Shown here piece after piece: positions 4,034-39,531 of a stretch of 40,195 nt of DNA; the first letter of the stretch is position 1, and the number at the start of each line of letters is the position of its first letter. Location of the stretch: the IMG/VR virus record IMGVR_UViG_3300021061_000016. One strand, given 5' to 3'. The position numbers were made by a program, and so were the translations under genes. This DNA is from a virus. Under the pieces are notes generated by a model, which searched no databases, was not told the DNA's origin, and saw nothing but the letters and a program-made list of their open reading frames with translations.

Positions 4034-4041
4034 GGTGAAAG

Positions 4042-14575: not shown

Positions 14576-14751
14576 ACATCCCAACCCTGCAAGGAATCGT
14601 GGGCAAAATAGACACCCTGCTTGAAGAACGAGGAATCACGCTTCCGGTTTGTGAGCATGGCCCCCTGAACCGCCGAAAGATGAATGGCGGTGGCGAGGTC
14701 TGCGATTGTGGCGAGGAATTTCTACCAGATGGAGACGGCGACAATGACTAA
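14572..14751 (+). CDS. Small hypothetical protein (59 aa), Cys-containing with an acidic tail
   Basis: ATGA overlap upstream. Sequence MNIPTLQGIVGKIDTLLEERG ... CEHG ... CDCGEEFLPDGDGDND. The stop overlaps the exonuclease start (ATGACTAA). Confidence 0.45.
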   Translation: MNIPTLQGIVGKIDTLLEERGITLPVCEHGPLNRRKMNGGGEVCDCGEEFLPDGDGDND

Positions 14752-15622
14752 AACCATCGACCGGACACAATTCCTAGGATCGTCCGAAATGGGCATCCTC
14801 TTGGGCCTCGATCAGTATAGGTCGCCTCTTAAGCTCTGGGCTATCAAGACCGGGCGCCTGACCAATGAGATCACCTCCGAGGCCGCCGAATGGGGTACCC
14901 GCCTTGAGGGTGTCGTGGCTCAGAAGTTCGCCGAAAAGAATGGCTGCAAGCTCATGGCCTATAAAAAGCGGTTCGTCCACCCGGTATATCCATTCATTTC
15001 CTGCGAGCTTGACCGGATCATCGTTGGAACCGATGAGATCGTCGAGGTCAAGACTTGCCATGACCGGCTTATCAAGAATTGGTCAGGCGAGGATATGCCA
15101 CAGAATTACTGTGTGCAGCTAAATACCGCCCTTGGTCTTTCAGGCCGAAAAAAAGGCCACATCGCCCTCTTGGCCGGCGGCCAGAAATACATCGAAAAGC
15201 ACATGGATTTCGACCAAGAGCTATACGACATGGTTATCGAAAAGGCGGTCGCTTTCTGGAATAACCACGTTCTGGCCGACCTCGCGCCAGTCGCCATCGC
15301 CATGGATAACGACGAGCCGGCCGACACCCTTGACCTTCTTTACCCCGCCTCTAATTCCCAGGCCATCGAGTTTTGCGGGGACGTTGCCAAAGAAATTGAT
15401 GTTTTAGTCGATGACCGTTTAGGGGCCTTGGAATCCATGAGCCACCTAAAGGAAGAACTAAACAAGATCGAGGCCAGGATAAAGCAGCTTATGGGCGAGA
15501 ACGAGGAAGGGACTACCGCCAATAGCCGCATTTCATGGAAGACGGTGAACAGGAAAGAATACACCGTCAAGGCCTCGAGCTATCGACAAATACGGACGAC
15601 TAAAACAGGAGAAGCAAAATGA
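14744..15622 (+). CDS. YqaJ-like viral recombinase exonuclease (PD-(D/E)XK, lambda Exo-like)
   Basis: FLGSSEMGILLGLDQYRSPLKLWAIKTG ... EWGTRLEGVVAQKF ... SCELDRII ... EIVEVKTC. The start is chosen at the internal ATG 14744 of track ORF 14684..15622. It lies next to recT. Confidence 0.8.
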   Translation: MTKTIDRTQFLGSSEMGILLGLDQYRSPLKLWAIKTGRLTNEITSEAAEWGTRLEGVVAQKFAEKNGCKLMAYKKRFVHPVYPFISCELDRIIVGTDEIVEVKTCHDRLIKNWSGEDMPQNYCVQLNTALGLSGRKKGHIALLAGGQKYIEKHMDFDQELYDMVIEKAVAFWNNHVLADLAPVAIAMDNDEPADTLDLLYPASNSQAIEFCGDVAKEIDVLVDDRLGALESMSHLKEELNKIEARIKQLMGENEEGTTANSRISWKTVNRKEYTVKASSYRQIRTTKTGEAK

Positions 15623-16581
15623 CCACCGCCATCGAAAACACAAAAAAGAGCATCCAGAACGGGTCTCTTACAGGAATCGAGCCCATCGAAAAGCTCTTGA
15701 AGAAAGACGAGATTAAGAGCCGCTTTTCGGAGGTCTTGGGTCAGAAGGCCGCGGCGTTCATGTCCTCGGTGCTGGCGGCGACCAATATCAACACGCAGCT
15801 TAAGGCTTGTGACCCCATGACGGTCTTATCGTCTGCCATGGTGGCGGCAACCCTGGATCTTCCTATCAATCAATCCCTGGGTTTTGCCCACCTTGTTCCT
15901 TATTCCGGCCGCTGCCAGTTCCAGATCGGCTGGAAGGGCCTAGTTCAGCTTGCCCACAGAACAGGAAGCTACAAGACCATCACCGTCGCCGAGATCTATG
16001 ACGGCGAGCTCGTCGAGTATAACCGCATCACGGAAGAAATCGAGTTCAATACCAACAATAAGAAGTCGGATAAGGTGATCGGCTATTACGCCCGGTTCGT
16101 ACTTATCAACGGCTTCGAGAAGTCGCTTTATATGACCCGCGCAGAAGTTGAAGCCCACGGGAAGAAATACTCGAAGTCCTATTCCTCCGGCCAATGGACG
16201 AAGGACTTTGACAGCATGGCCAGGAAAACCCTGATAAAGCTCCTTCTGGGCAAGTGGGGGCCTATGTCCACCGAGCTTCGCCGGGCGATCGTTGCCGATC
16301 AATCGGTGTCTAGCACCATCACGGTCGAGCCTGAGAACGCAACCTTGGACTACCCGGATGGTAATACCGATGAAGAAAAGCCCCAGGAGGGCTCTCAATC
16401 CGTCAAAAAGACGGCCTTGGACATCAAGATCCATGAAGCCAAGGAAAAGGTCGGTAAGGACCGTTATTACGCGATCCTTGGGGATATGGGCCATGAGCAT
16501 ATGACGACCCTCTCAAACCTCGAAAAAGAGGTGTTTCTGGGCAAGCTGAAGGATGCCATCAAAGAAAGACAGGCAGCTTAA
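15619..16581 (+). CDS. recT: RecT-family single-strand annealing protein
   Basis: 320 aa; ATGA overlap with the exonuclease gene. Sequence MVAATLDLPINQSLGFAHLVPYSGRCQFQIGWKGLVQLAHRTG is RecT-like. Confidence 0.8.
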   Translation: MTTAIENTKKSIQNGSLTGIEPIEKLLKKDEIKSRFSEVLGQKAAAFMSSVLAATNINTQLKACDPMTVLSSAMVAATLDLPINQSLGFAHLVPYSGRCQFQIGWKGLVQLAHRTGSYKTITVAEIYDGELVEYNRITEEIEFNTNNKKSDKVIGYYARFVLINGFEKSLYMTRAEVEAHGKKYSKSYSSGQWTKDFDSMARKTLIKLLLGKWGPMSTELRRAIVADQSVSSTITVEPENATLDYPDGNTDEEKPQEGSQSVKKTALDIKIHEAKEKVGKDRYYAILGDMGHEHMTTLSNLEKEVFLGKLKDAIKERQAA

Positions 16582-17261: not shown

Positions 17262-17504
17262 ATGATCCACGGCATGTCGAACCGAGAATTTGTCCTATCC
17301 ATTCTCCGTGATGGGAAGCCTCATTTTTCCAGGGAGTTTGTAAGATCTGCCGATGGAGAAGATCTCCTTCTCGATTACCGCAAAAGGATCTCCGAGCTTC
17401 GGGAAGAAAAGCACGGCGGTTACGACATAAGACCCGTGACGATTAATGGTCGCCCGGGTTATCAGCTTTTCTACAAGACAGACTTATTTGGACACGCGGC
17501 ATGA
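17262..17504 (+). CDS. Hypothetical protein (alternative GTG start at 17253)
   Basis: About 80-aa ORF. ATGA overlap with the NinG-like gene at its 3' end. Confidence 0.5.
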   Translation: MIHGMSNREFVLSILRDGKPHFSREFVRSADGEDLLLDYRKRISELREEKHGGYDIRPVTINGRPGYQLFYKTDLFGHAA

Positions 17505-17887
17505 CCTGGGGAGCGATTAAACGCAACCTCACCGACAAGCTTTTCTCGGACTATATCCGAATCAAAGCCAAGTGGATTTGCGAGCTTTGCAAGCGTGATT
17601 TTTCCACACGCCAATCTAAATTCGATTGCTCCCATTTTTACACCCGCGGAAACAAAGCTGTTCGCTTTGCCGAAGAAAACTGCTCCGCACTTTGCCGCGG
17701 ATGCCATGACTATTTCGGAAAGAACCCAAAAGAACACACTCTCTGGATGGAAAGAAAGCTTGGGATGGAAGGTTTTGCAAAGCTTACGATTCGAGCCCAC
17801 CAAACGAAACCCTCCTGGGAGATCAAATTTGACGAACAGACGATGAGGGTTTGGCTTAAACAACAACTGGCGAGGATGGGGGCATGA
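17501..17887 (+). CDS. NinG/Rap-like recombination endonuclease
   Basis: 128 aa. LFSDYIRIKAKWICELC ... DCSHFYTRGNKAVRFAEENCSALCRGCH follows the lambda NinG pattern FN.YIR.RD..C.SCG...GH....RF.E.N...C..CN. Confidence 0.6.
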   Translation: MTWGAIKRNLTDKLFSDYIRIKAKWICELCKRDFSTRQSKFDCSHFYTRGNKAVRFAEENCSALCRGCHDYFGKNPKEHTLWMERKLGMEGFAKLTIRAHQTKPSWEIKFDEQTMRVWLKQQLARMGA

Positions 17888-18288
17888 CCCAAATAGCGAT
17901 CGGCGAAGAAGTATATGCCATAAAAGCCTCCGCAGAACATGTGAAAGAGGAGTCGGAATGGTTCGGAAGTCAGATTGAATCTCTCCAAGCTTCCCGCATG
18001 AAATATCCGGTTGGCAAGGAGTTCAAGGTCCACCATCACATTCTCAATCCTCGGACCATCAAAAGAACCCAGGAAGCTTTTATCGTCATAAAAGGCAGGG
18101 TCGCCGTGGATATCTACGACATGAAGGGTGCCATCATCGGAAGTTTAGAAGCGGGTCCAGGTGAAGCGATCTTTGTCTACCGGGGCGGCCACGGCATACG
18201 GGTCCTTGAGGACTTTATCGGGTACGAGATCAAAGCCGGCAGCTATTCATACGTTTCAGAAGACAAGGTCTTTCTCGAAGATGTATGA
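17884..18288 (+). CDS. Cupin-fold protein (WbuC / sugar ketoisomerase-like)
   Basis: 134 aa; ATGA overlap upstream. KVHHHILNPRTIKRTQEAFIVIKGRVAVDIYD ... GEAIFVYRGGHGIRV is a cupin beta-barrel signature. First gene of the glycan island. Confidence 0.5.
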   Translation: MTQIAIGEEVYAIKASAEHVKEESEWFGSQIESLQASRMKYPVGKEFKVHHHILNPRTIKRTQEAFIVIKGRVAVDIYDMKGAIIGSLEAGPGEAIFVYRGGHGIRVLEDFIGYEIKAGSYSYVSEDKVFLEDV

Positions 18289-18868
18289 ACGAAACGATGT
18301 GATCAGGCAGTTTGAAAAGACCATCGCCGAGCATTGCGGTGCGCCTTATGGCGTTGCCGTTGAAAGCTGCACCGCAGCCCTTCTTCTGTGTTGCATTTAT
18401 CTCAAGGTCAAAGAGGTAACGATTCCCAAAAAAACTTATTATAGCGTCCCTTTCAGCATCCTTCATGCCGGAGGCACGGTCAATTTTGAAAGCTTGAAAT
18501 GGCGCGGGGCGTACCAACTAAAGCCTTATCCGATCATCGACAGCGCCATGAGATTTAAAAAAGCCATGTTCGAGCCGGGCAAATTAATGTGCCTATCGTT
18601 CCATTATGCAAAGCATATCCCAATCGGCCGGGGCGGGATGATCCTAACCGACAACAAGAAAGCCGCCGAATGGTTCCGCGTCATGCGTAACGATGGCCGG
18701 CGAGAAGTACCGAAGGAAATGGACAAAGTAAGGCTTGCCGGCTGGAACTTTTACATGAATCCCGAACAAGCGGCGAGAGGTTTGTCTTTGTACTATTGGC
18801 GCATTTTCAATCAAAAGGATCCTCAAGACCTTCCCATGACCCACGGAGATATTTCAAGTGTTCTCTAG
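18281..18868 (+). CDS. Short DegT/DnrJ/EryC1-like PLP-dependent sugar aminotransferase
   Basis: 195 aa from the internal ATG of track ORF 18161..18868. FEKTIAEHCGAPYGVAVESCTAALLL ... IIDSAMRF ... LSFHYAKHIPIGRGGMILTD retains the SFxxxK lysine motif. It is about half the usual length. Confidence 0.55.
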   Translation: MYERNDVIRQFEKTIAEHCGAPYGVAVESCTAALLLCCIYLKVKEVTIPKKTYYSVPFSILHAGGTVNFESLKWRGAYQLKPYPIIDSAMRFKKAMFEPGKLMCLSFHYAKHIPIGRGGMILTDNKKAAEWFRVMRNDGRREVPKEMDKVRLAGWNFYMNPEQAARGLSLYYWRIFNQKDPQDLPMTHGDISSVL

Positions 18869-19505
18869 AAACTACGCCGAATTTTACGATTTGTTCAATT
18901 CGGACAAGCCTTACAAAAAAGAAGTGGCCTTTGTCTACCGTTGGGCGGGGCGGCCTCATTCGATATTCGATATTGGCTGCGGGACAGGGAACTACTGGAG
19001 GCACTTTCCAAAATCGACCCATATTGTCGGCATCGACAGGTCGCAAGCGATGGTCGACAACGGCTATAGGATCATCCATGCCGACGCCATGACGTTTAAA
19101 ACCAATGTCCGGTTCGACTGTGCGACGGCCCTATTTGATGTCCTGAACTACATGCCGCGGAATGACTGGTGGGCCAATATCCCGGTGAAGAAGGGCGGGT
19201 ATTTCATCTTCGATATTTGGGACAAAAAAAAAGTTATGCGCGACGGTTTCAAGGAAACATTCAAGAACATCGGCCGGTATTGCCGGAAGATCACGCCTGT
19301 CCGGTGGAAGGAAAACGCCATTGATCTTAAGGTCGAGGTTATCTACATCGGCGACGATCATCACGAAACCGCCGCGAGCGAGATTCATACGATGTATCTC
19401 TATGGACAGAAGGACATCAAGAAATTTTGCGGTAAGGAATTTGAGATCGTCGATGTGAAGCCCACTAGCCGTTGGCAGACTTGGTATAAATGCAAAAAAA
19501 AATAG
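18858..19505 (+). CDS. Class I SAM-dependent methyltransferase
   Basis: 215 aa. Motif I IFDIGCGTGNYW, then post-I IVGIDRS. Confidence 0.7.
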   Translation: MFSRNYAEFYDLFNSDKPYKKEVAFVYRWAGRPHSIFDIGCGTGNYWRHFPKSTHIVGIDRSQAMVDNGYRIIHADAMTFKTNVRFDCATALFDVLNYMPRNDWWANIPVKKGGYFIFDIWDKKKVMRDGFKETFKNIGRYCRKITPVRWKENAIDLKVEVIYIGDDHHETAASEIHTMYLYGQKDIKKFCGKEFEIVDVKPTSRWQTWYKCKKK

Positions 19506-20530
19506 CACTCCTTCACCGCTACCCGGCCGATCAAATTAAATCCACCAATGCAGCGTTTCCGTATCTTGTTCAAAATCGATTCAGGGAGCCATTAGATTAT
19601 CGCCCAGGGGCAGTAAATTATTATGGCCCAGGCATGGACGTTTTAACCTTCAAATCCTTCGACCGCCTTTCCAAGTGGAAAAAGTTTTGGAAAAGCCTGG
19701 CCTGGATCTTCTATGCGCCTTACCTTGTCGCGGGAAAAGGCTATGACGTGATTTATTGCGACGATTCATACCCTTTTTATGGGGCAATCGTCAAAGCCGT
19801 ATGCCCGAGGGCGAAGGTTGTTTTAAGAATCGGCGACCTTCACCTCATGTATTACTATTCCGGCCTCGTATACAAGGTGCTGCACTTCCTTGAGCGTATC
19901 GCCTGGCTCATGGCCGACGAGATAATCGTTATATCTGAGGCGATGGCCGAATATTTTCATGCCGAAATTGGTCGCCGGCCGAAGGTCGTTTTAGACCCGG
20001 TCGATCCGGCAGACTTCCCGCCGATCCGGTCCTATCCCACCGAAACGATCATGTTTCACGGAACGCTTACCAAAAATAAGAACGTCGACATCATGCTCGA
20101 GGCCGCAAAATGGCTGCCGTATTACGACTTTGTAATTCTTGGCGACGGACCGGATTATGCAAGGCTCAAGAAAATCGCCACGAAAAACGTTCATTTCCAA
20201 GGATGGGTGCCGTTCAAGGATATCTACCAACATATCGCCTCATGCTCGATCGGGGTCGCTTTAAGAAGCGATAACCCGGGTAATGAGTATGTCGTCACCT
20301 CGCCCTTCATCCAGTACGGGATCATGGGAAAGCCCTGCCTTGTCACCCGCCGGAAGGTCTTTGGCGACTATAAATGGCAGTTCTCCAACGTCGCCGAAAT
20401 GGTGGAGAAGATACATATCCTCATGGTCCGGCCCGAGGAAGGAAAGAAACTCAAAGAGCATGTCTTGAAAAACCACGATGCTAAAAAGATCGCCGAGGAG
20501 ATATGGACGATCCTATCGTCACTATCGTAA
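19490..20530 (+). CDS. Glycosyltransferase, GT-B fold (GT1/GT4-like)
   Basis: 346 aa. C-terminal domain IMFHGTLTKNKNVDIMLEAAKWLPYYDFVILGDGPDYARLKK ... VHFQGWVP ... is typical of Glycos_transf_1. Confidence 0.75.
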   Translation: MQKKIALLHRYPADQIKSTNAAFPYLVQNRFREPLDYRPGAVNYYGPGMDVLTFKSFDRLSKWKKFWKSLAWIFYAPYLVAGKGYDVIYCDDSYPFYGAIVKAVCPRAKVVLRIGDLHLMYYYSGLVYKVLHFLERIAWLMADEIIVISEAMAEYFHAEIGRRPKVVLDPVDPADFPPIRSYPTETIMFHGTLTKNKNVDIMLEAAKWLPYYDFVILGDGPDYARLKKIATKNVHFQGWVPFKDIYQHIASCSIGVALRSDNPGNEYVVTSPFIQYGIMGKPCLVTRRKVFGDYKWQFSNVAEMVEKIHILMVRPEEGKKLKEHVLKNHDAKKIAEEIWTILSSLS

Positions 20531-21306
20531 TCCTCACGATGGGGGAAGCAAAAGAAGTTATAGAGTGCCTTGAAAACCAGACCTACAGAAGCTTCGAGAT
20601 CATCATTGCCAAAGAAAAGGGCATCGTAAACGCCATGAATAAGGCATTGGAGAAGGCCCGCGGCGAGATATTCGTCCGAGTCGATGATGATGTCGAGATC
20701 CCGGAAAGGTGGCTTGAGTCGCTTCTTTTCCCGTTTTCAGATCCCAACGTGGCCGGCGCCACAGGGCCTACATTCGTACCAGGCTACAGAAGGAAGAACA
20801 GGGACAGCATACGGATCTGGGAGAGGCCGAATTGGTTTTTAAGGTGGTTGCAGGATAACCGAGCTTTCGCGCCGGCGGCCATTTACAAATGCGGCATGGT
20901 TTCCTACGACTCCAATTACCGGGAAAGGTTTGGAAAAGGCTGCCATCTATTCACACCGGACCATCTGGAAGGGACAAATTGGGCCATGAGGACCGAGCTA
21001 ATCCGAAGGGTGGGCGGCTTTGACCCTGCCTTTGATGGGGTCGCAGAGTGGTTTGATACCGATGTCGAACAAAAGATAAAAAAGCTTGGTTACACGCTTC
21101 GCTATAGCACCGCAGCCTATCTATGGCACCTGGTAGAAAAGGGTGAGCATTTTGACGAGAGGTTCGCGGCATGGGGAAGGATCAAGAATTGGCTTAGGTA
21201 TCACTTAAGACACTCAAAACTTCATTGGAAGATGGCGGTCTATTTATTGGTTTGGATGGGTTACTTCATGCAAAAAAGGATCCAGCGATGCCTAAAGTTT
21301 CGGTAA
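20503..21306 (+). CDS. Glycosyltransferase family 2 (GT-A)
   Basis: 267 aa. VTIVILTMGE ... QTYRSFEIIIA ... GEIFVRVDDDVEIPERWLE (DxD motif). Confidence 0.75.
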   Translation: MDDPIVTIVILTMGEAKEVIECLENQTYRSFEIIIAKEKGIVNAMNKALEKARGEIFVRVDDDVEIPERWLESLLFPFSDPNVAGATGPTFVPGYRRKNRDSIRIWERPNWFLRWLQDNRAFAPAAIYKCGMVSYDSNYRERFGKGCHLFTPDHLEGTNWAMRTELIRRVGGFDPAFDGVAEWFDTDVEQKIKKLGYTLRYSTAAYLWHLVEKGEHFDERFAAWGRIKNWLRYHLRHSKLHWKMAVYLLVWMGYFMQKRIQRCLKFR

Positions 21307-22106
21307 TCATCCCCACAATGAAAGGCCGCAAGGCACTTTTGGAGAAGCTTCTTTCAACAATTCCATCCTATTGTGAAACGATCATTGTTGACGATGAGGA
21401 CATTCTTCTTGCTGCCAAAAGAAACAAAGGAGCTAAGAAGGCTACGGGAGAATACTTCCTTTTCATCGATGACGATAACTACTTAGCCCCAGGCGCTATC
21501 GCTGCTGCAATGACCTTGGCCGAAGATGATGGGGTGGGGGTGGTTGGCTTCATGGCTTGTTATGACGACAAGAAAAACCTTATTGCGGATGGCGGCTCAT
21601 ACAGGAATTACACGACCGGCTTTACCGATGGGCTTATGACGAATCACCGTTATTCGGAAATCGAAAAAGAGCCATATGAGGTTGACGAGGTTGCCAATGC
21701 CTTTTTAATGCACTCGGAGCTTTTCTTTGAGTTGCAAGGATTCGACGAAGAAAATTTCCCGATCGACTTGGACGAGGCCGACTTTTGTAAAAGAGCCAAG
21801 GAAAAGGGATACAAAATTATGATGTGTCCAAAGGCAAGGTGTTACCACAAATCACAAACATATAGTCCGATCCCGGACTTTAGGAGGCCAAGGAATGCGT
21901 ACTTTATGGGTAGGAATAGAATTATTTATCAGAGAAAGTTTAATCATCCTCTACGTTTTGGCGTGTACCTTTGCTTTTTCATGCCTGTATTTGTTGGTTT
22001 TTATTCGGCTTCGCTTATTTGGCGCCGGAAGCCGTTAATGATAGTGCATTTTTTAAAGGGGGTCTTTGATGGAATACTCGGTCGTCGAAAAAATACATAT
22101 CAATAG
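21288..22106 (+). CDS. Glycosyltransferase family 2 (GT-A) with a C-terminal hydrophobic segment
   Basis: ATG 21288 follows aagga. VSVIIPTMKGR ... GEYFLFIDDDNYLAPGAI ... DEADFCKRAKEKGYKI. Confidence 0.75.
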   Translation: MPKVSVIIPTMKGRKALLEKLLSTIPSYCETIIVDDEDILLAAKRNKGAKKATGEYFLFIDDDNYLAPGAIAAAMTLAEDDGVGVVGFMACYDDKKNLIADGGSYRNYTTGFTDGLMTNHRYSEIEKEPYEVDEVANAFLMHSELFFELQGFDEENFPIDLDEADFCKRAKEKGYKIMMCPKARCYHKSQTYSPIPDFRRPRNAYFMGRNRIIYQRKFNHPLRFGVYLCFFMPVFVGFYSASLIWRRKPLMIVHFLKGVFDGILGRRKNTYQ

Positions 22107-22872
22107 GGCGCGAGCAAAGAAGATCGGGGCGTTTCTTTACGACCCCAAGATCGACGGCCTTTACCTTGAAAGCCCATGGCCTTTCCCTGTGCAAATAGGA
22201 ATGACGAATCGCCTTTCAAAGTGCGAGGTGACCCCCATGTTCTTGAGGCTTCCTTTCATCATGAAGGGTTGGCTCAATCAGGACATCCTTCTTCGCATGG
22301 TGGATCTGCTTAGGCTTGTCGGTGAGGGAAAGATCTTGATGCACGGCTCTTGCGTTGGCGACACCCTCATCGTCGGGCTGCCGAATGCCGGAAAGACCTA
22401 TCAGACCTATCGCATGGTCTCAAGTGGCGGCAAGCTTATTTCCGAAGAATACACCGTTCTATATGACGGCAAGGCCCACCCATATAGCGACGTTATGCGG
22501 ACCTGTTTTTCCGCACGGACAATGAAGGATTGCGGAATCGATATGACCCTCTGGGAGAAGATCTGGCTTTTCTTTGCCACCATCCGGGCCAAGCTTTTTC
22601 CTTTCATGTACGAAGCGGTCATCTGGAAGGAGATCAAGGCAAGCGGAGAGGAGTCCAAAATCAAGCGTATTATCTACGGCTCGACCGGCCAAGAGGTGAA
22701 GGATTGGAAGCATTTTGCCATCCTCTGCGAGAACGAATTTCCTTTCATGTCGAGCGAGTTTTTACAGGCTTATGCCCTGGCCTCCGGCTTGGACCTCATC
22801 GCCATTCAGAACAAACAACGAGAATTGATAAGGAGATTTGTCCTTCATGTCTATCCTGATCACCGGAAATAG
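22069..22872 (+). CDS. HPr-kinase-like P-loop protein (HprK-related kinase)
   Basis: About 267 aa; SD aaaggggg upstream. LMHGSCVGDTLIVGLPNAGKTYQTYRMVSSGGKLISEEYTVLYDG parallels the HprK C-domain pattern lHa..v...g.gvli.G.sGsGKS..a..L...G..lvaDD. Confidence 0.55.
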   Translation: MEYSVVEKIHINRARAKKIGAFLYDPKIDGLYLESPWPFPVQIGMTNRLSKCEVTPMFLRLPFIMKGWLNQDILLRMVDLLRLVGEGKILMHGSCVGDTLIVGLPNAGKTYQTYRMVSSGGKLISEEYTVLYDGKAHPYSDVMRTCFSARTMKDCGIDMTLWEKIWLFFATIRAKLFPFMYEAVIWKEIKASGEESKIKRIIYGSTGQEVKDWKHFAILCENEFPFMSSEFLQAYALASGLDLIAIQNKQRELIRRFVLHVYPDHRK

Positions 22873-23545
22873 GGGCTTTATCGGGTCCGGCCTTAAAGGC
22901 GACGGGATCGACCTAAAGGACGGCGTCGATATCCTGACCTACCGGGCGACAAAAAGATATGACGTCGTTATCCATACCGCGGCCTTGGTGAGTGTGACCG
23001 AATCGATGAAAGACCTTGCTGGGTACTGGCGAACGAATGTCGACGGAACGGTCAACATGCTAAGGCAGCACCCGGAGGCCCATTTTATATACCTCTCGAC
23101 AGCGGCCGCTTATGGACCCGGAGAAGATCATAAAGTTGGCGACCATCTTTACCCGACGTCGCCATATGCCAAATCAAAGATCGTCGGCGAGTTGGCGGTT
23201 AAATACTTCGCCAAGACCTACTGCATTCTGCGCCTGACAAACGTGGTAGGGGATGGGGAAAGGGGCGAGCCTAACGTATTCCAGGTATTCAAGAAAGCCG
23301 ACATCCTTCCGATTTATGGTGACGGGCTACAGACTCGGGATTTTATCTCAGTCGATGATGTAAGGGCCGTCATTATGGAAATGGCCCATCTTAAGACCCA
23401 AGGCACATACAACGTCGGCTCTGGAAAATCCAAAACCATCCTTGAGGTCGCAAGGACCTTTGACAAGCCGGTCAGATTTTTTCCTGAAAGAGAAGGCGAG
23501 ATCAGACGTTTCGGAGTGGCCGATGCTATCCATCCTCATTCCTGA
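22847..23545 (+). CDS. Compact NAD-dependent epimerase/dehydratase (extended SDR)
   Basis: About 232 aa. ILITGNRGFIGSGL (GxxGxxG), STAAAYG, YAKSK (YxxxK). Confidence 0.7.
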   Translation: MSILITGNRGFIGSGLKGDGIDLKDGVDILTYRATKRYDVVIHTAALVSVTESMKDLAGYWRTNVDGTVNMLRQHPEAHFIYLSTAAAYGPGEDHKVGDHLYPTSPYAKSKIVGELAVKYFAKTYCILRLTNVVGDGERGEPNVFQVFKKADILPIYGDGLQTRDFISVDDVRAVIMEMAHLKTQGTYNVGSGKSKTILEVARTFDKPVRFFPEREGEIRRFGVADAIHPHS

Positions 23546-24116
23546 CCATAACGAGGAACGGATAAAGGAGTTCGTCGAGGAGGTCGAATCCCTTGGGATC
23601 GCCCATGAAATCGTCGTTTCCAAGGACTCGGAAAGTAGGGGCAAAGGATGGGCGCTGCGGGAGGCTTTTAAGGCGTCCCGTGGCGATTTGATCGCCTTCA
23701 TCGATGGGGACGGGGATATAAAGCCAAGGATGTTTTACCGGATGCTTCCATTCCTTGAAGATTTCGATGTGGTCGTGGGGTCCAAAAGGATTACGCGATC
23801 CCCAATGCGGCGAAAGGTCATGACCCGCCTTACCCGGTTATGGTTCAAGCTTCTTTTCGGGGTGCGAGTCGACACGCAAACAGGGATCAAGATTTTCCGA
23901 CGTGAGACATTCGACGTCTTCGCAAACTATTGGGAATCGAACGGCTTTATCTTTGACGTCGAGATCCTATCGGCGATGCAAGCCAACGGCGCAAGGATGA
24001 TCGAGGTTCCAATAGAGGCAGAGATAAGGAAGCAATTAGCGTTTAAAACCATATTCAGAATATTCGGAGAAAGCCTATGGCTAAAGTATCGGTTATTATC
24101 CCCACAAAAAAAATAG
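23523..24116 (+). CDS. Glycosyltransferase family 2, DPM1/GtrB-like (polyprenol-phosphate sugar synthase-like), lacking TM helices
   Basis: 197 aa from the internal ATG of track ORF 23442..24116. LSILIPDHNEE ... RGKGWALREAFKASRGDLIAFIDGDGD ... DTQTGIKIFRRE. Confidence 0.6.
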   Translation: MLSILIPDHNEERIKEFVEEVESLGIAHEIVVSKDSESRGKGWALREAFKASRGDLIAFIDGDGDIKPRMFYRMLPFLEDFDVVVGSKRITRSPMRRKVMTRLTRLWFKLLFGVRVDTQTGIKIFRRETFDVFANYWESNGFIFDVEILSAMQANGARMIEVPIEAEIRKQLAFKTIFRIFGESLWLKYRLLSPQKK

Positions 24117-24754
24117 ATTATTACGTTGAGCGGTGCTTAAGGCACTTGAAGAAGCTGCCGGAAGTTCATGAAATCCTTGTGATTCCTGACTCCGAATGCC
24201 CTGGGCTGCCGGCGACTAAGCGAAACTACGCCATGGCTAAGGCCACAGGTGACGTGTTCGCTTTCATCGATTCCGATGCCTACCCACACCCTAAATGGCT
24301 CAAGAACTCGCTCTACTGGCTCCAAACGTTCGACGCCGTATGCGGGCCTGGGGTTTTACCACCTGACGCTCCGTACGAAGAAAGGGTCGCAGATCAGGTT
24401 CATAAATGGCTTTTCTGCCCGTATAGGGTCACGCCTAAGGCCCCCAGGATCGTTCCATGGCACCCAACCTTCAATTTGGTTGTGAAGAAGGCTGTGGCGA
24501 CCGATTTCGAGGGTTATTTGACCGGCGAGGACGACAAGTTCGGGTTAAACATCAAGGGCGGGGTGTTTTACCACCCAGAGATCCTTGTCTATCACAACCG
24601 ACGCGGAGCCTTTAAGCCTTTATGGAAGCAGTTTGGGACGTATGCAAGGCATAAGGGGTGCTTTGCCGGCCTGGCTTTCGTGGCATGGGTTACGACGATA
24701 TGGACGTATGCGATCAATTACGTCAAAGGATTCATGAAAAGGAGCCCCAAATGA
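24077..24754 (+). CDS. Glycosyltransferase family 2 (GT-A) with a C-terminal TM segment
   Basis: 225 aa. VSVIIPTKKIDYYVERCL ... GDVFAFIDSDAYPHPKWL. C-terminal hydrophobic stretch FAGLAFVAWVTTIWTYAI. Confidence 0.7.
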   Translation: MAKVSVIIPTKKIDYYVERCLRHLKKLPEVHEILVIPDSECPGLPATKRNYAMAKATGDVFAFIDSDAYPHPKWLKNSLYWLQTFDAVCGPGVLPPDAPYEERVADQVHKWLFCPYRVTPKAPRIVPWHPTFNLVVKKAVATDFEGYLTGEDDKFGLNIKGGVFYHPEILVYHNRRGAFKPLWKQFGTYARHKGCFAGLAFVAWVTTIWTYAINYVKGFMKRSPK

Positions 24755-25782
24755 AAGTTCTAATCACCGGCTCCCTGGGTCTTGTAGGTTCGGCCGCCGT
24801 CCGATATTACCTCAACGAAGCTTGCGAGGTAATCGGCGTCGACAATGACATGCGAAAGCACTTCTTTGGCCCGGAGGCATCGGTCCTAAAGAACATGATC
24901 GACCACGGAAACTACCGCCACCACGGGATAGATATATCTAAGATCGAGCCAATTATCGAAGCAGAGAAGCCGGACGCCATCATTCATTGCGCTGCGCAGC
25001 CAAGCCACGACTACTCGGCCCAAAACCCTCTTTTAGACTTTGGTATCAACGCCTATTCGACCCTCATGCTTCTTGAAATGACCCGAAAGCATATCCCAGA
25101 AGCGGTCTTTGTTTATCTTTCGACGAATAAAGTTTATGGGGATACGCCAAACTATTTCAGGACCATGAAAGAAGAAGAAACTCGTTATGAAGCTTACAAC
25201 ACAGTTACCGTTGGTATGGATTTAGTTACAGAGTTTTCGGACTTAAGCAATGGCATTTCAGAGGGGATGCCAGTCGACATGACCACCCACTCCCCCTTCG
25301 GGGTATCCAAGCTCGCCGGTGATCTCTACGTCCAGGAATACGCCCGGTACTTCGGATTAAAAACAGGCGTCTTTCGTTGTGGCTGCATCACAGGGGCCGC
25401 CCATGCCGGCGCCGAGCTTCACGGCTTTTTGTCCTACATGGTCCGCTGCAAGAAAGAAAACAGGAGGTACAAGGTCTATGGGTATAAGGGCAAACAGGTA
25501 CGCGACAATATCCACGCTTCTGACTTGGTTCGTGCTATCGATGCTTTTGTCCAGGATCCCAGCCCTGGTGAAGTCTATAACATTGGTGGTGGACGCCATT
25601 CAAACATATCCGTCCTCGAAGCCCTGAACTGGCTCAAAATTAAGGATTGGGAATACGTCGACCAGGCAAGGAAGGGGGATCATATTTGGTATATCTCTGA
25701 CGTGTCCAAGTTCAAGGCGCATTATCCCGGGTGGGATTATAAATACAATATGTGGGCGATTATGGAGGATTTGATGAGATGA
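24751..25782 (+). CDS. NAD-dependent sugar epimerase/dehydratase (extended SDR, CDP-paratose-2-epimerase-like)
   Basis: 343 aa; ATGA overlap upstream. VLITGSLGLVGSA, VIGVDNDMRK, STNKVYG, FGVSKLAGD (YxxxK-type catalytic region), GKQVRDNIHASDL. Confidence 0.7.
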   Translation: MKVLITGSLGLVGSAAVRYYLNEACEVIGVDNDMRKHFFGPEASVLKNMIDHGNYRHHGIDISKIEPIIEAEKPDAIIHCAAQPSHDYSAQNPLLDFGINAYSTLMLLEMTRKHIPEAVFVYLSTNKVYGDTPNYFRTMKEEETRYEAYNTVTVGMDLVTEFSDLSNGISEGMPVDMTTHSPFGVSKLAGDLYVQEYARYFGLKTGVFRCGCITGAAHAGAELHGFLSYMVRCKKENRRYKVYGYKGKQVRDNIHASDLVRAIDAFVQDPSPGEVYNIGGGRHSNISVLEALNWLKIKDWEYVDQARKGDHIWYISDVSKFKAHYPGWDYKYNMWAIMEDLMR

Positions 25783-25913
25783 CAATCGTTTTCATCGATA
25801 ATGGTAAGAAAGTATCTTACGAGTTGCTTTACGAATTTGATAGCTACTTAGGTTTTCTTTTAGACGAAGCCAAAAAGGAATTGAGGGGATGCGATGAGAA
25901 GAAAAAGATATAA
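25779..25913 (+). CDS. Possible 44-aa ORF in the AT-rich insert
   Basis: ATGA overlap with the SDR stop. Sequence MTIVFIDNGKKVSYELLYEFDSYLGFLLDEAKKELRGCDEKKKI. Below the track cutoff. Confidence 0.35.
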   Translation: MTIVFIDNGKKVSYELLYEFDSYLGFLLDEAKKELRGCDEKKKI

Positions 25914-26142
25914 ACTTTTCAATGAGGATAGAGTTGTAATCGAAGAATTTCCTAAAATGAAAAAATGTGGCAATTCAAAGGTGACTGAAAAAGTTCAAAA
26001 CCAAAGGTGCATTCAAACAAACAAATGCAAATTTTGTGGGGATAAAATTATTTGGCAAAAAACATCTGGTGGACGATGGCTCCCGTTCAATATTGATTCA
26101 CATATTCCTCATCCATATTTGTGTAAAGAAATAAACAAATGA
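25894..26142 (+). CDS. Small Cys-rich protein translationally coupled to the radical SAM gene
   Basis: 82 aa with five Cys (C25, C39, C45, C48, C77), including CKFCGDKIIWQKTSGGRWLPFNIDSHIPHPYLC. Visibly AT-rich DNA. ATGA overlap with the 26139 start. Confidence 0.5.
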   Translation: MRRKRYKLFNEDRVVIEEFPKMKKCGNSKVTEKVQNQRCIQTNKCKFCGDKIIWQKTSGGRWLPFNIDSHIPHPYLCKEINK

Positions 26143-27179
26143 GATACCTTTTCCCGCTTAATCCGTACAACCAACAGCGCCAATTCCAAAAGCCGGTATG
26201 GGTATACCCCGCCCACCTTGCGATGTATGCCACGCATTTGAGGAATGAGGGGCATGAGGTTAGATGGGGGCATGCGACTACTCCAATAATGAAAGAGGAT
26301 ATTTCAATAAGGGCAGATGATATTTTAATAATGAACGACTTTCAAATCGACGTGCCGTTCGATCAGCTGCCTTTCCCGGACCGTGAATTTACCGACGCCA
26401 AGCATCCCAGGTGGCAATCCTATGGAAACTATAAGCTTCACCCGGCAACGCATTACATGTCCTCCAATCTTTGTTGGTGGGGGAAGTGTACGTTTTGCAT
26501 CGACACCGCGAAGCTCGAGGCCGGCGAAAAAAGAGGCGTCCGGCCGGTCGACCATGTCCTTGAGGAAATAGACGATTGTATCCGGCTTGGCTTTAGGGAA
26601 ATGTTCGACGATGCCGGGACGATCCCCATAGGAGATTGGCTTGAGGAGTTATGCAAAAAAATGATAGAAAGCGGCCGGAACAAAAAGATCATGCTCGGCT
26701 GCAACTTAAAGCCTATATCCAAAAAGGTCGTGCCTTTTAAGCTCATGAAAGAGGCCGGGTTTCGCTTTATTCTTGTCGGCATCGAATCGGCCAATCAAAA
26801 AACGATCGACCTGATCAAGAAAGGCCAGGACTCGGCCAAGGTCATTGAGAACATGAAAGCCATGAACGACGCGGGGCTTGAGGTCCATTTGACCTCAATG
26901 TTCGGCTATCCGTGGGAAACTCACGAAGACGCCATGCGGACGGTAAGCGAGATCCATTACCTTCTTCGGAAAGGCTATGTGAAGACCGCCCAAGCCTCGG
27001 TGTATATGCCGCCCAGGACCGCGCCGGACCCATGCTCCCCGTCGCAGCAGTATATCCAAAAGGTCTATGACATCTACAAAGACCCCCGGTATTGGGTAAG
27101 GAAGGCCTTAGATATCAAGCGAATTGAGGACATCACATATTTACTCAAAAGGATTGGACACGTTAAACATGCCGAGTGA
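26139..27179 (+). CDS. Radical SAM enzyme, class-B (B12-binding-like N-terminus)
   Basis: 346 aa. LPFPDREF, cluster motif CWWGKCTFC (26472-26498), VGIESANQKTIDLIKKG, MFGYPWET. Confidence 0.65.
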   Translation: MRYLFPLNPYNQQRQFQKPVWVYPAHLAMYATHLRNEGHEVRWGHATTPIMKEDISIRADDILIMNDFQIDVPFDQLPFPDREFTDAKHPRWQSYGNYKLHPATHYMSSNLCWWGKCTFCIDTAKLEAGEKRGVRPVDHVLEEIDDCIRLGFREMFDDAGTIPIGDWLEELCKKMIESGRNKKIMLGCNLKPISKKVVPFKLMKEAGFRFILVGIESANQKTIDLIKKGQDSAKVIENMKAMNDAGLEVHLTSMFGYPWETHEDAMRTVSEIHYLLRKGYVKTAQASVYMPPRTAPDPCSPSQQYIQKVYDIYKDPRYWVRKALDIKRIEDITYLLKRIGHVKHAE

Positions 27180-28539
27180 AATAGGATGGATCATAGTCGT
27201 CAATCTTGCCCTTTATTTCAAGACCCTACGCTTTAAATTCGTATCGGATGATTTCACGGTCTGGAAGAACCCACCCGTCCCAAAAAGCCCCATTCATAAG
27301 CTGTGGCTGCAGTTGTCAGGCCAGATGAAGATCTACGCCAAGTCGATCAGGTTTGTCCGGCATAACGGTAAGCTTTTTATTGCGATAGTCCGGGCCGAGG
27401 AAATGGAGCATTTACTAGCTCTTCTTCTCCATATCGGGATCTGTATCTCGATTTATTTTGCATTCGGGGCCTCATGGGTGTCCTTTGTGGCAGCCCTTCT
27501 ATACTCGACCAATCCGGTCAATAACCAGGGAACGATATGGCCCTCCGGCCGCGGGTACGTCTTTCCAATCCTTGGGATCCTATTGGCAATGGCTATGCCT
27601 TTGGCCTCGCCGCTATTTCTATACGCCGGGACGTGGTACACCGCCGGCTTTTTGGCCCCCCTGGCCCTTATAGGCTCGTCCAAAGCCTATCTTTTATGGC
27701 TTATGCCGATCATCTGGTGGCTGCACTCAAAGAAATTCACCAAGGCCGTCAAGAATAAGCAGAACACCGAGTGCTTCACCGAGGATAGGCTAGTCCACCC
27801 CAAAAAGCTCATTTTGGGGGTCAAATCCTTCGGGTTTTACCTATTTCTGTGCCTTATCCCGTTCAGGATCACGTTCTATCATAACTTCCTTCAATCGTCG
27901 GCGGGGTCTATGAGGCATAAGAATTACACGCTTTGCCGGTACTTTTGGCTCGGCCTTGGCGCGATTGGGGCATGGATGTACTTTGCCCTCACCCAACCGT
28001 GGAACCCGCTTCTTTGGGCTTCTTTGGCCTTCTTTATCACGATCGTCCCTTTTTGCAACATCGTCAGGGCCAATCAAGAGATCGCCGAGCGCTTTGCAGC
28101 CCTCCCAAACGTCTTTTTGATGTATGCCTTGGCCCAAATTATTGCATGGAACCCAATTCTAATAGCGGCTATTGTGTCGTTTTACGCATGCCGTACATTC
28201 TATACGCTCAACCTCTACAAAGACGAATATTGGATCACAGAACTCGCGGTAGCAGAAGATCCCCATGCTTGGTGGGCTTGGCATTGCCGGGCGATGAAGC
28301 GGTGGGACACCCAAAGCTACAAGGAAGCTTTAATCCTATGGGTCATGGCCAAGATCATTTCTCCGAAGGAATTTAAGATCCTAATGAATATCGCCACCTG
28401 TCTTCGGCTTTTACAGAACCACAAGGAAGCCGATGAATACTTGAAGCTCGCCCAAGAGAACATCGTTCCGGGGCAGGAAGAAACGGCCGCACAGTTTATC
28501 GCAGAGCATCGCAAAGGGAAGCTCCTCATCTTGCTGTAA
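27169..28539 (+). CDS. GT-C fold membrane glycosyltransferase (TMTC/PMT-like, DUF1736-like) with C-terminal TPR-like repeats
   Basis: 456 aa from the internal ATG of track ORF 27124..28539. N-terminal LRFKFVSDDFTVWKN acidic loop motif, at least nine hydrophobic segments, and a C-terminus SYKEALILWVMAKIISPKEFKILMNIATCLRLLQNHKEADEYLKLAQE. Confidence 0.6.
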   Translation: MPSEIGWIIVVNLALYFKTLRFKFVSDDFTVWKNPPVPKSPIHKLWLQLSGQMKIYAKSIRFVRHNGKLFIAIVRAEEMEHLLALLLHIGICISIYFAFGASWVSFVAALLYSTNPVNNQGTIWPSGRGYVFPILGILLAMAMPLASPLFLYAGTWYTAGFLAPLALIGSSKAYLLWLMPIIWWLHSKKFTKAVKNKQNTECFTEDRLVHPKKLILGVKSFGFYLFLCLIPFRITFYHNFLQSSAGSMRHKNYTLCRYFWLGLGAIGAWMYFALTQPWNPLLWASLAFFITIVPFCNIVRANQEIAERFAALPNVFLMYALAQIIAWNPILIAAIVSFYACRTFYTLNLYKDEYWITELAVAEDPHAWWAWHCRAMKRWDTQSYKEALILWVMAKIISPKEFKILMNIATCLRLLQNHKEADEYLKLAQENIVPGQEETAAQFIAEHRKGKLLILL

Positions 28540-30195: not shown

Positions 30196-30509
30196 TGGCC
30201 GGGGTTGCTGGCAAGAGCGGACGCAAATCGAACGTCGAAGAGGAATTTCGCTTTAAGACCGTCTCCAAGGCCTGGAAGCTCATCGACCAGCATCTAGAGA
30301 ATCCAGCCCTTGATCTCAAATTCCGTTTGGAGCTTGCAGCCAAGCTTTGCGTGAAATCCATTCCTCAGGAGATAAACGGTGACCTGAGGCACCAAGTAAC
30401 AGAAATGCCCGCGATCCAGAAGGAATATCCTGGTGAGGCAATGAACGCTCCGGTAAACCGCATTGCGGAGTATATCATTGGCTCACCTCACTCTCCCCAA
30501 GATACTTGA
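30195..30509 (+). CDS. terS: Terminase small subunit (tentative)
   Basis: 104 aa. N-terminal basic GKSGRKSN motif. It lies immediately upstream of, and overlaps, the large terminase gene. Confidence 0.5.
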   Translation: MAGVAGKSGRKSNVEEEFRFKTVSKAWKLIDQHLENPALDLKFRLELAAKLCVKSIPQEINGDLRHQVTEMPAIQKEYPGEAMNAPVNRIAEYIIGSPHSPQDT

Positions 30510-31839: not shown

Positions 31840-32108
31840 TGGCATTAACAACAGCAGCATCGATAGCACTTGGGTTATTTGTCGGCGGTGCGGGTATTAT
31901 GGCGGCAAACAAAGGTCTAATGGGTTCATCCAAACAAACGGCGCAACCAACGCCTTTACCACAACCCCCAAACCCGGTCGACGCAGCAGCCAAGGCGGGT
32001 GAGGCGATTAGAAAGAAGAAGGCCGCGGTCACTCAAACTGTTTATACCTCACCCCTCGGAGTCAAGGGCGAGGCCGATGTCGCCCGGAAGGTATTGCTCG
32101 GTCAATGA
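31839..32108 (+). CDS. Small protein with an N-terminal TM segment and a TSPLG ... LLGQ C-terminus
   Basis: 89 aa from ATG 31839 (the track offers GTG 31836), after SD ggggtgagg. AASIALGLFVGGAGIMAA. Confidence 0.5.
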   Translation: MALTTAASIALGLFVGGAGIMAANKGLMGSSKQTAQPTPLPQPPNPVDAAAKAGEAIRKKKAAVTQTVYTSPLGVKGEADVARKVLLGQ

Positions 32109-39515: not shown

Positions 39516-39531
39516 ACCAAGGAGAACGTAT

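Follow-up and report, generated by a model that had tools for sequence, protein, structure and literature searches.

A core gene module for putative lipid-carrier-dependent glycosylation in a lineage of small uncultured podoviruses

In the GtrB/GtrC, ArnC/ArnT and Ppm1/Pmt systems, a sugar is loaded onto polyprenyl phosphate on the inside, flipped, and transferred on the outside. Phage surface glycosylation has so far been described mostly as small, optional cassettes of temperate phages of enteric bacteria. Here, we analyze a gene block in IMG/VR virus record IMGVR_UViG_3300021061_000016, the whole 40,195-base stretch of which we call the window, and we find that an uncultured lineage spends a quarter of its coding capacity on a 13-enzyme core pathway. 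All long open reading frames (ORFs) of this genome lie on the + strand. The block (17884-28539, +) is an unbroken run of 15 ORFs flanked by a NinG-like gene on one side and the small late genes on the other; it fills 10,656 of the 40,195 bases (26.5%), and 13 of its 15 products are enzyme-like. We posit, with a probability of roughly one-half, that this module directs a lipid-carrier-dependent glycosylation resembling the Gtr and Arn systems, which would take place outside the cytoplasmic membrane, draw on host sugar pools and alter the host envelope.

This proposal draws on the conservation of the module and, within it, on one constant pairing. An IMG/VR search with the last product of the block, a multi-pass membrane protein with tetratricopeptide repeats (TPR) at its C terminus (the membrane/TPR protein), returned 19 loci; a search anchored instead on the large terminase (TerL) returned 7, and all 7 carry the membrane/TPR gene upstream. 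The common gene order is methyltransferase, GT4, GT2a, GT2b, P-loop protein, GT2c, GT2d, long SDR, radical SAM enzyme and membrane/TPR protein (GT, glycosyltransferase; SDR, short-chain dehydrogenase/reductase; SAM, S-adenosylmethionine). The same order and position hold in L001-L019, L024 and L072-L075, wherever the sequence suffices, at identities of 50-80%, compared with 61-77% for TerL and 62-79% for the portal, and the membrane/TPR gene lies 0.3-2.8 kb upstream of TerL in every relative. A distant sublineage, in which the membrane/TPR protein is 44% identical, has a shorter module with a flavin adenine dinucleotide (FAD) protein, three GT2s and a different SDR. This sublineage retains the radical SAM enzyme, the membrane/TPR protein and GT2c, and we thus take these three genes to be the ancient core. 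The constant pairing of GT2c with the membrane/TPR protein matches GtrB with GtrC, ArnC with ArnT and Ppm1 with Pmt.

The same data bear on how the block came to be where it is. The original prediction, made by a model from the sequence alone, had called it an island. Syntenic islands, sought in viral databases, are indeed present in the same place in more than 25 relatives. As acquired cargo, the term does not hold: the block is a core module of the whole lineage, it diverges as TerL and portal do, and the GC content in the composition of the window shows no break across it. Because all seven relatives found through TerL carry the module, and because it occupies the same place in more than 25 relatives, we consider it lineage defining and not a recent acquisition. 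The prediction had also named an assembly chimera as the finding that would undo it. At least four samples yielded independent assemblies of the genome, with differing contig starts, which fit a circular or terminally redundant genome; the radical SAM protein sequence occurs on seven contigs, two of them 40,209-bp assemblies that come from different samples and begin at different points. More than 25 diverged relatives share the right-hand junction of the block, and the left-hand junction can be read in L013, where a NinG-like ORF (by eye) precedes the cupin gene. The 15 ORFs of the block are as follows.

17884..18288, +: small cupin of 134 amino acids (aa), weakly WbuC-like (TIGR04366, 28.8 bits, cut-off 42); variable part
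18281..18868, +: half-length DegT/DnrJ/EryC1-type pyridoxal phosphate (PLP) aminotransferase (mini-DegT), 195 aa (PF01041, 73.9 bits, cut-off 19.8)
18858..19505, +: class I SAM methyltransferase (Pfam Methyltransf_25; DIGCGTG motif)
19490..20530, +: GT4-type GT-B glycosyltransferase, public call starting at 19634 (Glyco_trans_4_4, Glyco_transf_4, Glycos_transf_1)
20503..21306, +: GT2a, DDD motif (PF00535, 49.1 bits)
21288..22106, +: GT2b, DDD motif, C-terminal transmembrane segment (PF00535, Glyco_tranf_2_3)
22069..22872, +: P-loop protein, 267 aa, putative HprK/P-PEPCK fold class (AlphaFold2 [AF2] model, mean confidence [pLDDT] 90, with Foldseek)
22847..23545, +: short extended SDR, 232 aa (PF01370, 109 bits, aligned from profile position 48); variable part
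23523..24116, +: GT2c, DGD motif, 197 aa (ArnC, Dol-P-Man synthase, phrog_841); universal core
24077..24754, +: GT2d, DSD motif, C-terminal transmembrane segment (PF00535, 43.9 bits)
24751..25782, +: long extended SDR, 343 aa, CDP-tyvelose-2-epimerase-like (PDB 9RL0, E 7.9e-41; 1ORR, E 7.3e-33)
25779..25913, +: 44-aa ORF, in the public annotation; no family match
25894..26142, +: 82-aa Cys-rich ORF, doubtful, at a variable insertion spot; no family match
26139..27179, +: radical SAM enzyme, class-B-like core (PF04055, 57.1 bits); universal core
27169..28539, +: membrane/TPR protein, 456 aa, about 11 helices and a C-terminal TPR (AF2, TPR profile); universal core

Family calls come from Pfam and NCBIfam scans, with PHROGs, PDB sequence and profile matches, and AF2 models searched with Foldseek as further sources. 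Neighboring ORFs overlap by 4-40 nt throughout, and ATGA junctions link NinG to the cupin, GT2d to the long SDR, the long SDR to the 44-aa ORF, and the 82-aa ORF to the radical SAM enzyme. A public gene call on an identical contig has 14 genes in the block and leaves out the 82-aa ORF at 25894-26142. In this respect, the original prediction has held up well: 15 same-strand ORFs at 17884-28539, joined mostly by ATGA or short overlaps and filling about a quarter of the genome, are what it described, and the genome around them is podovirus-like, as it said, and has an integrase. Pfam and NCBIfam bear out the half-length DegT with its SFHYAKH motif, the SAM methyltransferase, the single GT-B enzyme, the four GT2 enzymes with DDD, DDD, DGD and DSD motifs and the two extended SDRs, and Pfam gives matches for glycosyltransferases, SDRs and the radical SAM enzyme alike. 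At 15 ORFs, the block is far larger than the gtrABC and oac cassettes with which it had been contrasted. Further assignments stand in part. WbuC likeness of the cupin is weak, and no PDB relative was found; the HprK-like reading of the P-loop protein has a Foldseek fold match at low TM-scores and no sequence match; one of the two small ORFs (44 aa) is in the public call and the other is omitted there; the radical SAM enzyme has the predicted core and lacks a full B12 domain; and the protein labeled a GT-C transferase with TPRs is multi-pass and TPR-tailed, with no detectable GT-C homology.

GT2c is, by sequence, closest to the catalytic domain of polyprenyl-phosphate glycosyltransferases of the GtrB/ArnC/Dol-P-Man synthase type. 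Its best PDB matches are ArnC (E 2.6e-4) and Dol-P-Man synthase, with E values for this group of up to 2.9e-3, and its sole PHROG is phrog_841, 'GtrB-like O-antigen conversion' (E 5.8e-9). Its best NCBIfam match is AglJ, and AglG is among the matches of GT2a, GT2b and GT2d, all of them far below the cut-offs. In the distant sublineage (L026 and L028), the copies of GT2c are 45-46% identical, and in L026 the gene comes directly after the membrane/TPR gene. The other four glycosyltransferases are conserved in relatives at 54-64% (GT4), 58-69% (GT2a), 51-64% (GT2b) and 52-81% (GT2d) identity. The hydrophobic segments of GT2b and GT2d lie near residue 246 of the long ORF and at residue 195, respectively. 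The cupin, GT4, GT2d, the P-loop protein and the membrane/TPR protein are all without a PHROG family.

The AF2 model of the membrane/TPR protein (pLDDT 87) has about 11 membrane helices and a helical-repeat tail, which a family profile search identifies as TPR. Across 43 family members at 22-62% identity, D27 and R308 are invariant and D28 is nearly so; D27 and D28 come directly after helix 1, and both are invariant in profiles A1 and A4, the latter covering the membrane part only. If the basic loop at 187-212 is set as cytoplasmic, then DD27-28, NPxNNQ..W..GR (115-128), YH237-238, N297..R308 and the TPR would all lie outside, a sidedness that follows the positive-inside rule only, as read from the sequence and the AF2 helices. 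An acidic pair opening the first outer loop, together with outward conserved polar residues, resembles GT-C enzymes. Based on this topology, the invariant DD after the first helix and gene linkage, we use the GT-C label in the sense of a resemblance, not of a demonstrated membership. We presume, by analogy, that the protein is a lipid-linked-sugar transferase, and its constant co-occurrence with the GtrB/ArnC-like GT2c suggests a polyprenyl-phosphate-linked donor. Conservation within the protein is among its highest in the TPR stretch.

Searches for a relative of the membrane domain came back empty. Pfam scans of 77 family members (34 plus 43) gave TPR families only, with no PMT, PMT_2 or DUF1736 match. 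Profiles A1, A3 and membrane-only A4 found no membrane-domain match in the PDB, and Foldseek with the full-length model against the PDB and BFVD returned only TPR or insignificant matches (TPR alone among the best 50). Aligning the membrane domain with Escherichia coli ArnT by hhalign gave a probability of 0.5%. A tblastn search with the protein found no match in GenBank phages and plasmids; nor did a TMTC-like motif used as bait in plasmids for GT-C/TPR comparison sequences. One relative departs from the usual gene structure: in L012 (5342-7227), the membrane/TPR gene is split after about residue 325 by an insert of about 530 nt, within which lie an ORF with a YopX domain and part of the small gene usually found next downstream. 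The C-terminal helix and TPR continue there as a separate 146-aa ORF, and no Rfam intron was found.

The left end of the module varies, in that the cupin, the mini-DegT and the short SDR come and go between relatives. The cupin, which has no Pfam, PDB or PHROG match, has copies at 60% identity in L005 and L013 only. The mini-DegT, 67-78% identical in L005, L008 and L013, aligns only to residues 40-101 and 176-244 of perosamine synthetase; it keeps the PLP-binding lysine (that of SFHYAK, which aligns with the SFFGNK lysine of perosamine synthetase) and lacks the N terminus, about 40 internal residues and the whole C-terminal domain, leaving the fold-type I architecture (about 360-390 aa) incomplete. 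At its position, L010 and L016 have a full-length DegT of 337 aa (1437-2450) plus a 313-aa SDR. The short SDR is present in L002, L003, L005 and L072 and missing in L008, L010, L012, L013 and L016. The methyltransferase is present in all relatives whose sequence reaches its position. With CalS10, DesVI and TylM1 as its top PDB matches (E about 1e-5 to 9e-5), it appears closest to the N-methyltransferases of nucleoside diphosphate (NDP)-aminosugars, a substrate predicted from similarity. Mycaminose synthesis proceeds through a 3,4-ketoisomerase, an aminotransferase and an N,N-dimethyltransferase, in that order, and the trio of cupin, aminotransferase and N-methyltransferase resembles such aminosugar-tailoring routes; the full-length DegT and SDR that replace the mini-DegT in L010 and L016 also support this reading.

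The long SDR matches 9RL0 over residues 1-334, and its nucleotide-binding motif reads TGSLGLVGS. In place of the catalytic Tyr of YxxxK, around residue 190, it has Phe (HSPFGVSK versus HSPYGCSK in the template), as do all 13 of 13 relatives; the protein would be either a pseudo-enzyme or an enzyme with a changed mechanism. Assignment as a 4,6-dehydratase was rejected, the best match being to CDP-tyvelose 2-epimerase; STNKVYG stands at what we take to be the site where dehydratases have an Asp-Glu pair. The two small ORFs that follow have no counterpart in relatives, which have unrelated small ORFs or homing-endonuclease-like genes at the position of the 82-aa ORF. Homing-endonuclease-like ORFs lie between module genes in L001, L002, L004, L024 and L026; they are of HNH, GIY-YIG and LAGLIDADG types by eye, with one Endonuclease_7 domain by Pfam, and they concentrate between the long SDR and the radical SAM enzyme, the site of the two nonconserved small ORFs in the window.

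Sequence comparison of the P-loop protein with Pfam, NCBIfam, PHROGs and the PDB gave no match, and its family profile is also empty against the PDB. Its AF2 model is matched by Foldseek to HprK/P and PEPCK with a probability of 1.0 and an E value of about 2e-3, at a low TM-score of 0.24-0.42. G103..N106.GKT110 is invariant, and the family numbers 197 clusters. The radical SAM enzyme is 41-80% identical in all relatives, L026 and L028 included. Its best NCBIfam matches, HpnJ and PhpK, are far below the cut-offs and run from about profile position 190 (residue 97) onward. The conserved cysteines are C112-x4-C117-x2-C120, that is, CX4CX2C and not CX3CX2C. There is no B12-binding Pfam match and no full N-terminal cobalamin-binding domain; the N-terminal 100 or so residues form, judged by eye, only a beta-alpha-beta-like stub.

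From gene content, family and fold assignments, linkage, conservation and restriction to phage-size contigs, we propose a route, a topology, an activity for the membrane/TPR protein, an acceptor and a purpose. In this model, the variable set (cupin, mini-DegT, TylM1-like N-methyltransferase and short SDR) would modify host nucleotide-sugars in the cytoplasm, and the conserved set of tyvelose-epimerase-like SDR and radical SAM enzyme may also tailor sugars. GT2c would load a sugar onto host polyprenyl phosphate at the inner membrane face. Elongation of the lipid-linked glycan, or activity on other acceptors, may fall to the anchored GT2b and GT2d together with GT2a and GT4, and the HprK/PEPCK-fold P-loop protein may add a phosphate-linked group. 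A host flippase, or an unrecognized one, would turn the loaded lipid outward, whereupon the membrane/TPR protein would transfer the sugar to an acceptor outside the cytoplasmic membrane, with the TPR holding the acceptor or a partner. We speculate that the purpose is a change of the envelope, for example, receptor masking against superinfection or against loss of progeny on debris; masking or exclusion is what phage systems of this type are known to serve. Since every relative has the module, this change would probably occur in every infection and not only in lysogens, and the size of the module, its core status and the conservation of the TPR fit such a role better than variable lysogenic conversion. 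Lysogenic conversion, which had been suggested at the outset, is thus not favored over a role in every infection; of the relatives examined, a single one has a recognizable integrase, and the block is not delimited by a promoter or terminator of its own.

Several observations weigh against this proposal. GT2c is without the membrane helices of GtrB and ArnC, and no search links the membrane/TPR protein to a GT-C family or structure. The half-length DegT and the Tyr-less SDR may carry out chemistry that differs from their family names. Among the scanned window proteins there is no nucleotidyltransferase, initiating phosphoglycosyltransferase, flippase (Wzx, GtrA) or Wzy, nor does the window hold a GtrA-like small multi-pass ORF. 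These absences had been predicted, along with the dependence on host sugar and lipid-carrier pools that we also find: with no sugar activation, initiating transferase or flippase of its own, the phage would require those of the host. Strong conservation of the TPR stretch is more in keeping with a constant partner than with a surface glycan that varies. The receptor-masking and seroconversion cassettes known to date are small, variable and tied to lysogeny, and this module is large and core. Finally, the purpose of the pathway is the weakest link of the explanation. Could the module be more than an envelope modifier? More tentatively, one can imagine an obligatory viral glycosylation machine of giant-virus scope in a 40-kb podovirus, in which a phage-only class of TPR-tailed membrane transferase, a GtrB-like synthase, a class-B-type radical SAM enzyme lacking the cobalamin domain and other stripped-down enzymes (mini-DegT, Tyr-less SDR) would place an unusual sugar on an envelope or exported acceptor and be essential in every infection; we consider this possible, and rather doubtful.

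Clustered at 90% identity, the membrane/TPR family falls into 259 clusters; at 50% identity, it has 303 representatives. Both it and the P-loop family occur, among the contigs listed, on contigs of at most about 57 kb (about 52 kb for the longest one with the P-loop protein), and they have no Pfam domain; the names given to their members are 'hypothetical protein' and, once, 'MFS family permease'. A pattern scan of 185,579 species genomes returned a single locus, L024 (JAHFDG010000034.1), a 40.8-kb contig binned as Candidatus Methanoperedens that carries terminase, portal and capsid genes and is thus a whole phage. Megablast of the block against GenBank phages gave no match, and portal identity to phages of the GenBank collection does not exceed 32%, the nearest being HTVC010P-type pelagiphages and BPP-1. 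Hundreds of sequence clusters, groundwater samples included, make up this uncultured groundwater and freshwater lineage.

A probable relative of this phage is already in print as a virus with a glycosyltransferase auxiliary metabolic gene (AMG), without analysis of those genes (PMC10980836). That virus, vir_325 from New Zealand groundwater, was presented as an example of a glycosyltransferase AMG carrier (PMC10980836), and its host was assigned as Halobacteriota nzgw24 because its glycosyltransferase and sugar dehydratase were 100% identical to genes of a metagenome-assembled genome (MAG) (PMC10980836). L024 lies within that MAG. Given that the MAG contig is itself a whole phage genome, the 100% identity is most simply explained as a binning effect. 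Contigs of the lineage sit in MAG bins of Methanoperedens (L024), Saccharibacteria and Parcubacteria (the latter two including L026 [RXKC01000030.1] and P0061). Host calls and statements of an 'AMG identical to a host gene' from such bins are probably artefacts. We rejected an archaeal host as unsupported. Based on a membrane-anchored DPBB lytic transglycosylase, RecE/RecT, NinG and common Shine-Dalgarno motifs, the host is probably a bacterium with peptidoglycan.

Judged by sequence matches, the rest of the genome appears podoviral, with an integrase and structural genes of the T7/BPP-1 type; its landmarks are as follows.

503-3469, +: tail tubular protein B
3470 to 9442, +: internal virion proteins
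10951-11898, +: tyrosine integrase
14684-16581, +: RecE/RecT
17501..17887, +: NinG-like gene, left neighbor of the block (PF05766, 28.7 bits)
about 30478-31839, +: TerL (PHROG terminase families)
32748-34412, +: T7-type portal
35686-36573, +: major capsid protein
37197-37805, +: tail tubular protein A

The block starts 6 kb from the integrase, and on its right about 2 kb separate it from the start of the late module. The single integrase recognized among the relatives is 27% identical, and neither the integrase nor the 1361-aa internal virion protein found any relatives as an IMG/VR anchor. A tRNA scan of the window found no tRNA gene, and hence no attP or host clue, and an Rfam scan of the window and of L012 found no family. 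A promoter and terminator scan returned fewer promoter-like sites than shuffled sequence and no excess of terminators, and it yielded no transcription-unit boundaries.

Several neighboring features deserve mention in their own right. An ORF ending at 503 is 37-50% identical to ORFs of the fibre region that lie ahead of tail tubular B in relatives, and by eye it resembles a LamG-type domain; it probably starts before the window end (39516-40195 joined to 1-503), so that the window would be one permutation of a circular or terminally redundant genome. A GNAT-type acetyltransferase (32105-32542) lies between terminase and portal, with a counterpart in nearly every relative inspected. The DPBB_1 (RlpA-like lytic transglycosylase) protein at 13475-14056, a candidate endolysin by its domain, has an N-terminal membrane segment and lies in the early region, away from the late genes. 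Between module and terminase, the window has small ORFs only; the corresponding gap has DNA methyltransferase-like genes (by eye) and a DUF5131 protein (Pfam) in L013 (11372-12118, 12699-13388) and L011 (4107-5754).

Two observations concern virion proteins. A 165-aa protein follows the capsid gene (36639-37136) and is present in two copies in L008 (17995-18492 and 18549-19079). It has five N-x-S/T sites against about two expected, an excess that is too weak to use and may mean nothing; two of them (N9-V-T and NNWT) are also in the L008 copy. Further to the right, a 58-aa ORF (37805-37981) and a fibre-like protein (37953-39515) both open with a Sec-signal-like hydrophobic leader, followed in both by the motif AKTE..SRDA.SVV.YG.N.G..V.IKVDA.GV. 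This leader-bearing pair recurs in L029 (6418-6594 and 6594-9440) and L039 (18908-19084 and 19086-20075), and the fibres of L033 and L035 have no hydrophobic leader. Signal peptides on tail-fibre-like proteins are unusual.

What else could such a module do? One alternative, which we regard as unlikely, is that it encodes a near-complete pathway for an O-antigen or exopolysaccharide unit, with the membrane/TPR protein acting as a Wzy- or WaaL-like enzyme and a new polymer appearing on lysogens. Five glycosyltransferases with sugar-tailoring genes are indeed what O-antigen clusters contain, an integrase is present, the left part of the module differs from one relative to another in the manner of serotype loci, and Wzy and WaaL are too diverse for homology detection; TPR-tailed O-antigen-ligase-like proteins exist. 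Yet there is no Wzx or ABC exporter and no Wzy_C match, the constant GtrB/ArnC-like GT2 partner points to a monophosphate-linked donor, the integrase of the window has a recognized counterpart in just one of the examined relatives, and the block has no promoter or terminator of its own through which lysogens might express it. The module might also serve the virion, with soluble GT2 and GT4 enzymes acting in the cytoplasm, as those of mycobacteriophages do, to glycosylate capsid, decoration or fibre proteins and so shield or stabilize particles, while the membrane protein has some other role. Its core status and its position directly upstream of packaging and structural genes are expected of a virion-related function, and the sequon excess in the capsid-adjacent protein, weak as it is, would fit. 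Cytoplasmic protein glycosylation, however, needs neither a polyprenyl-phosphate-type GT2 nor a multi-pass membrane protein, both of which are universal core, and GT2b and GT2d are membrane anchored; we give this option a low likelihood. A related and still less probable idea is that the TPR transferase glycosylates the phage's own exported fibre-like proteins. The Sec-type leaders in the window and in the L029 and L039 counterparts, and a periplasmic TPR suited to a protein acceptor, speak for it. Against it, L033 and L072 (one contig) combine fibres without a leader with a full module (leaderless L035 is uninformative in this regard, as its 17-kb contig stops short of the module), and virion fibres normally assemble in the cytoplasm.

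The remaining alternatives fare worse or no better. That the genes are ordinary AMGs recently copied from a host and boosting host glycan synthesis, as suggested for vir_325 (PMC10980836), has that published statement in its favor, and the enzyme families concerned are common in cells. This seems improbable to us in light of L024 being a whole phage, of the confinement of the membrane/TPR and P-loop families to phage-size contigs, of a species-genome scan that gave L024 only, and of divergence like that of structural genes with no GC break. The block might instead place sugars on the bases of phage DNA. Some phage DNA-modification clusters combine glycosyltransferases, a kinase-like P-loop protein, an aminotransferase and a radical SAM enzyme, a make-up similar to that found here. 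The window, however, yielded no hydroxymethylase, TET/JBP enzyme or DNA polymerase and no other gene for nucleotide modification, and the core has membrane-embedded and lipid-carrier-type enzymes, so that DNA hypermodification is very improbable. An assembly chimera of a phage with a bacterial polysaccharide locus is effectively refuted by the independent assemblies, the junctions shared with relatives (the right one in more than 25, the left one in L013) and the uniform composition.

If the proposal of a lipid-carrier-dependent envelope glycosylation is true, such glycosylation can be a central viral function and not only an accessory one. The membrane/TPR and HprK-fold P-loop families, for which these searches gave no cellular relatives, would acquire a function open to testing, and the minimal variants (a 195-aa DegT, a Tyr-less SDR and a radical SAM enzyme that lacks a B12 domain) would put to the test what their folds require. 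It would also call for caution with glycosyltransferase 'AMG' and host calls in metagenomic surveys.

How, then, does the module compare with described systems? One of them is gtrABC of P22 and of Shigella phages SfII, SfV and SfX, which is likewise phage encoded and in which a GT2 makes a polyprenyl-phosphate sugar and a multi-pass transferase attaches it periplasmically. In contrast, the module has 13 enzyme genes instead of 3, has no GtrA, and has a GT2c without membrane helices and a TPR-tailed membrane protein without detectable relation to GtrC; it lies away from the integrase as a lineage core, and it carries enzymes for sugar tailoring as well as a radical SAM enzyme and a P-loop protein. 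The Arn pathway (ArnB, ArnC, ArnA, ArnD, ArnE/F and ArnT), which adds aminoarabinose to lipid A, shares with the proposed route the logic of tailoring by SDR and DegT enzymes, ArnC-type loading and multi-pass transfer, and ArnC is the best solved relative of GT2c. The module differs from it in having no formyltransferase, deformylase or flippase, a DegT of half length and four further glycosyltransferases, and the hhalign probability for ArnT is 0.5%. In actinobacterial Ppm1/Pmt and eukaryotic PMT/TMTC (GT-C enzymes, some with TPR), a polyprenyl-phosphate-sugar synthase is combined with a multi-pass transferase in which an acidic pair opens the first outer loop, and TMTC proteins carry a C-terminal TPR domain on the noncytoplasmic side. 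The 77 membrane/TPR family members scanned match neither PMT, PMT_2 nor DUF1736. The Agl pathway of Haloferax (AglJ, AglG, AglI, AglE, AglP and AglB) has a GT2 that charges polyprenol monophosphate, GT2s that extend the glycan, a SAM methyltransferase and a multi-pass transferase; the AglJ and AglG matches of the module are far below cut-offs, there is no STT3/AglB signature, and the host here is probably bacterial.

Among viruses, mycobacteriophages likewise place glycosyltransferases and methyltransferases beside structural genes. Theirs are a few cytoplasmic enzymes for capsid and tail, with no lipid-carrier GT2, membrane transferase, radical SAM enzyme or SDR/aminotransferase set. The giant viruses (Mimivirus and the chloroviruses) and the lipopolysaccharide-type islands of cyanophages and pelagiphages combine, as this module does, dehydratase/epimerase, aminotransferase and methyltransferase genes with several glycosyltransferases. 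Those clusters take up a small share of genomes of 150 kb to more than 1 Mb, whereas here 26% of a 40-kb genome is given over to a module centered on a presumed membrane transferase.

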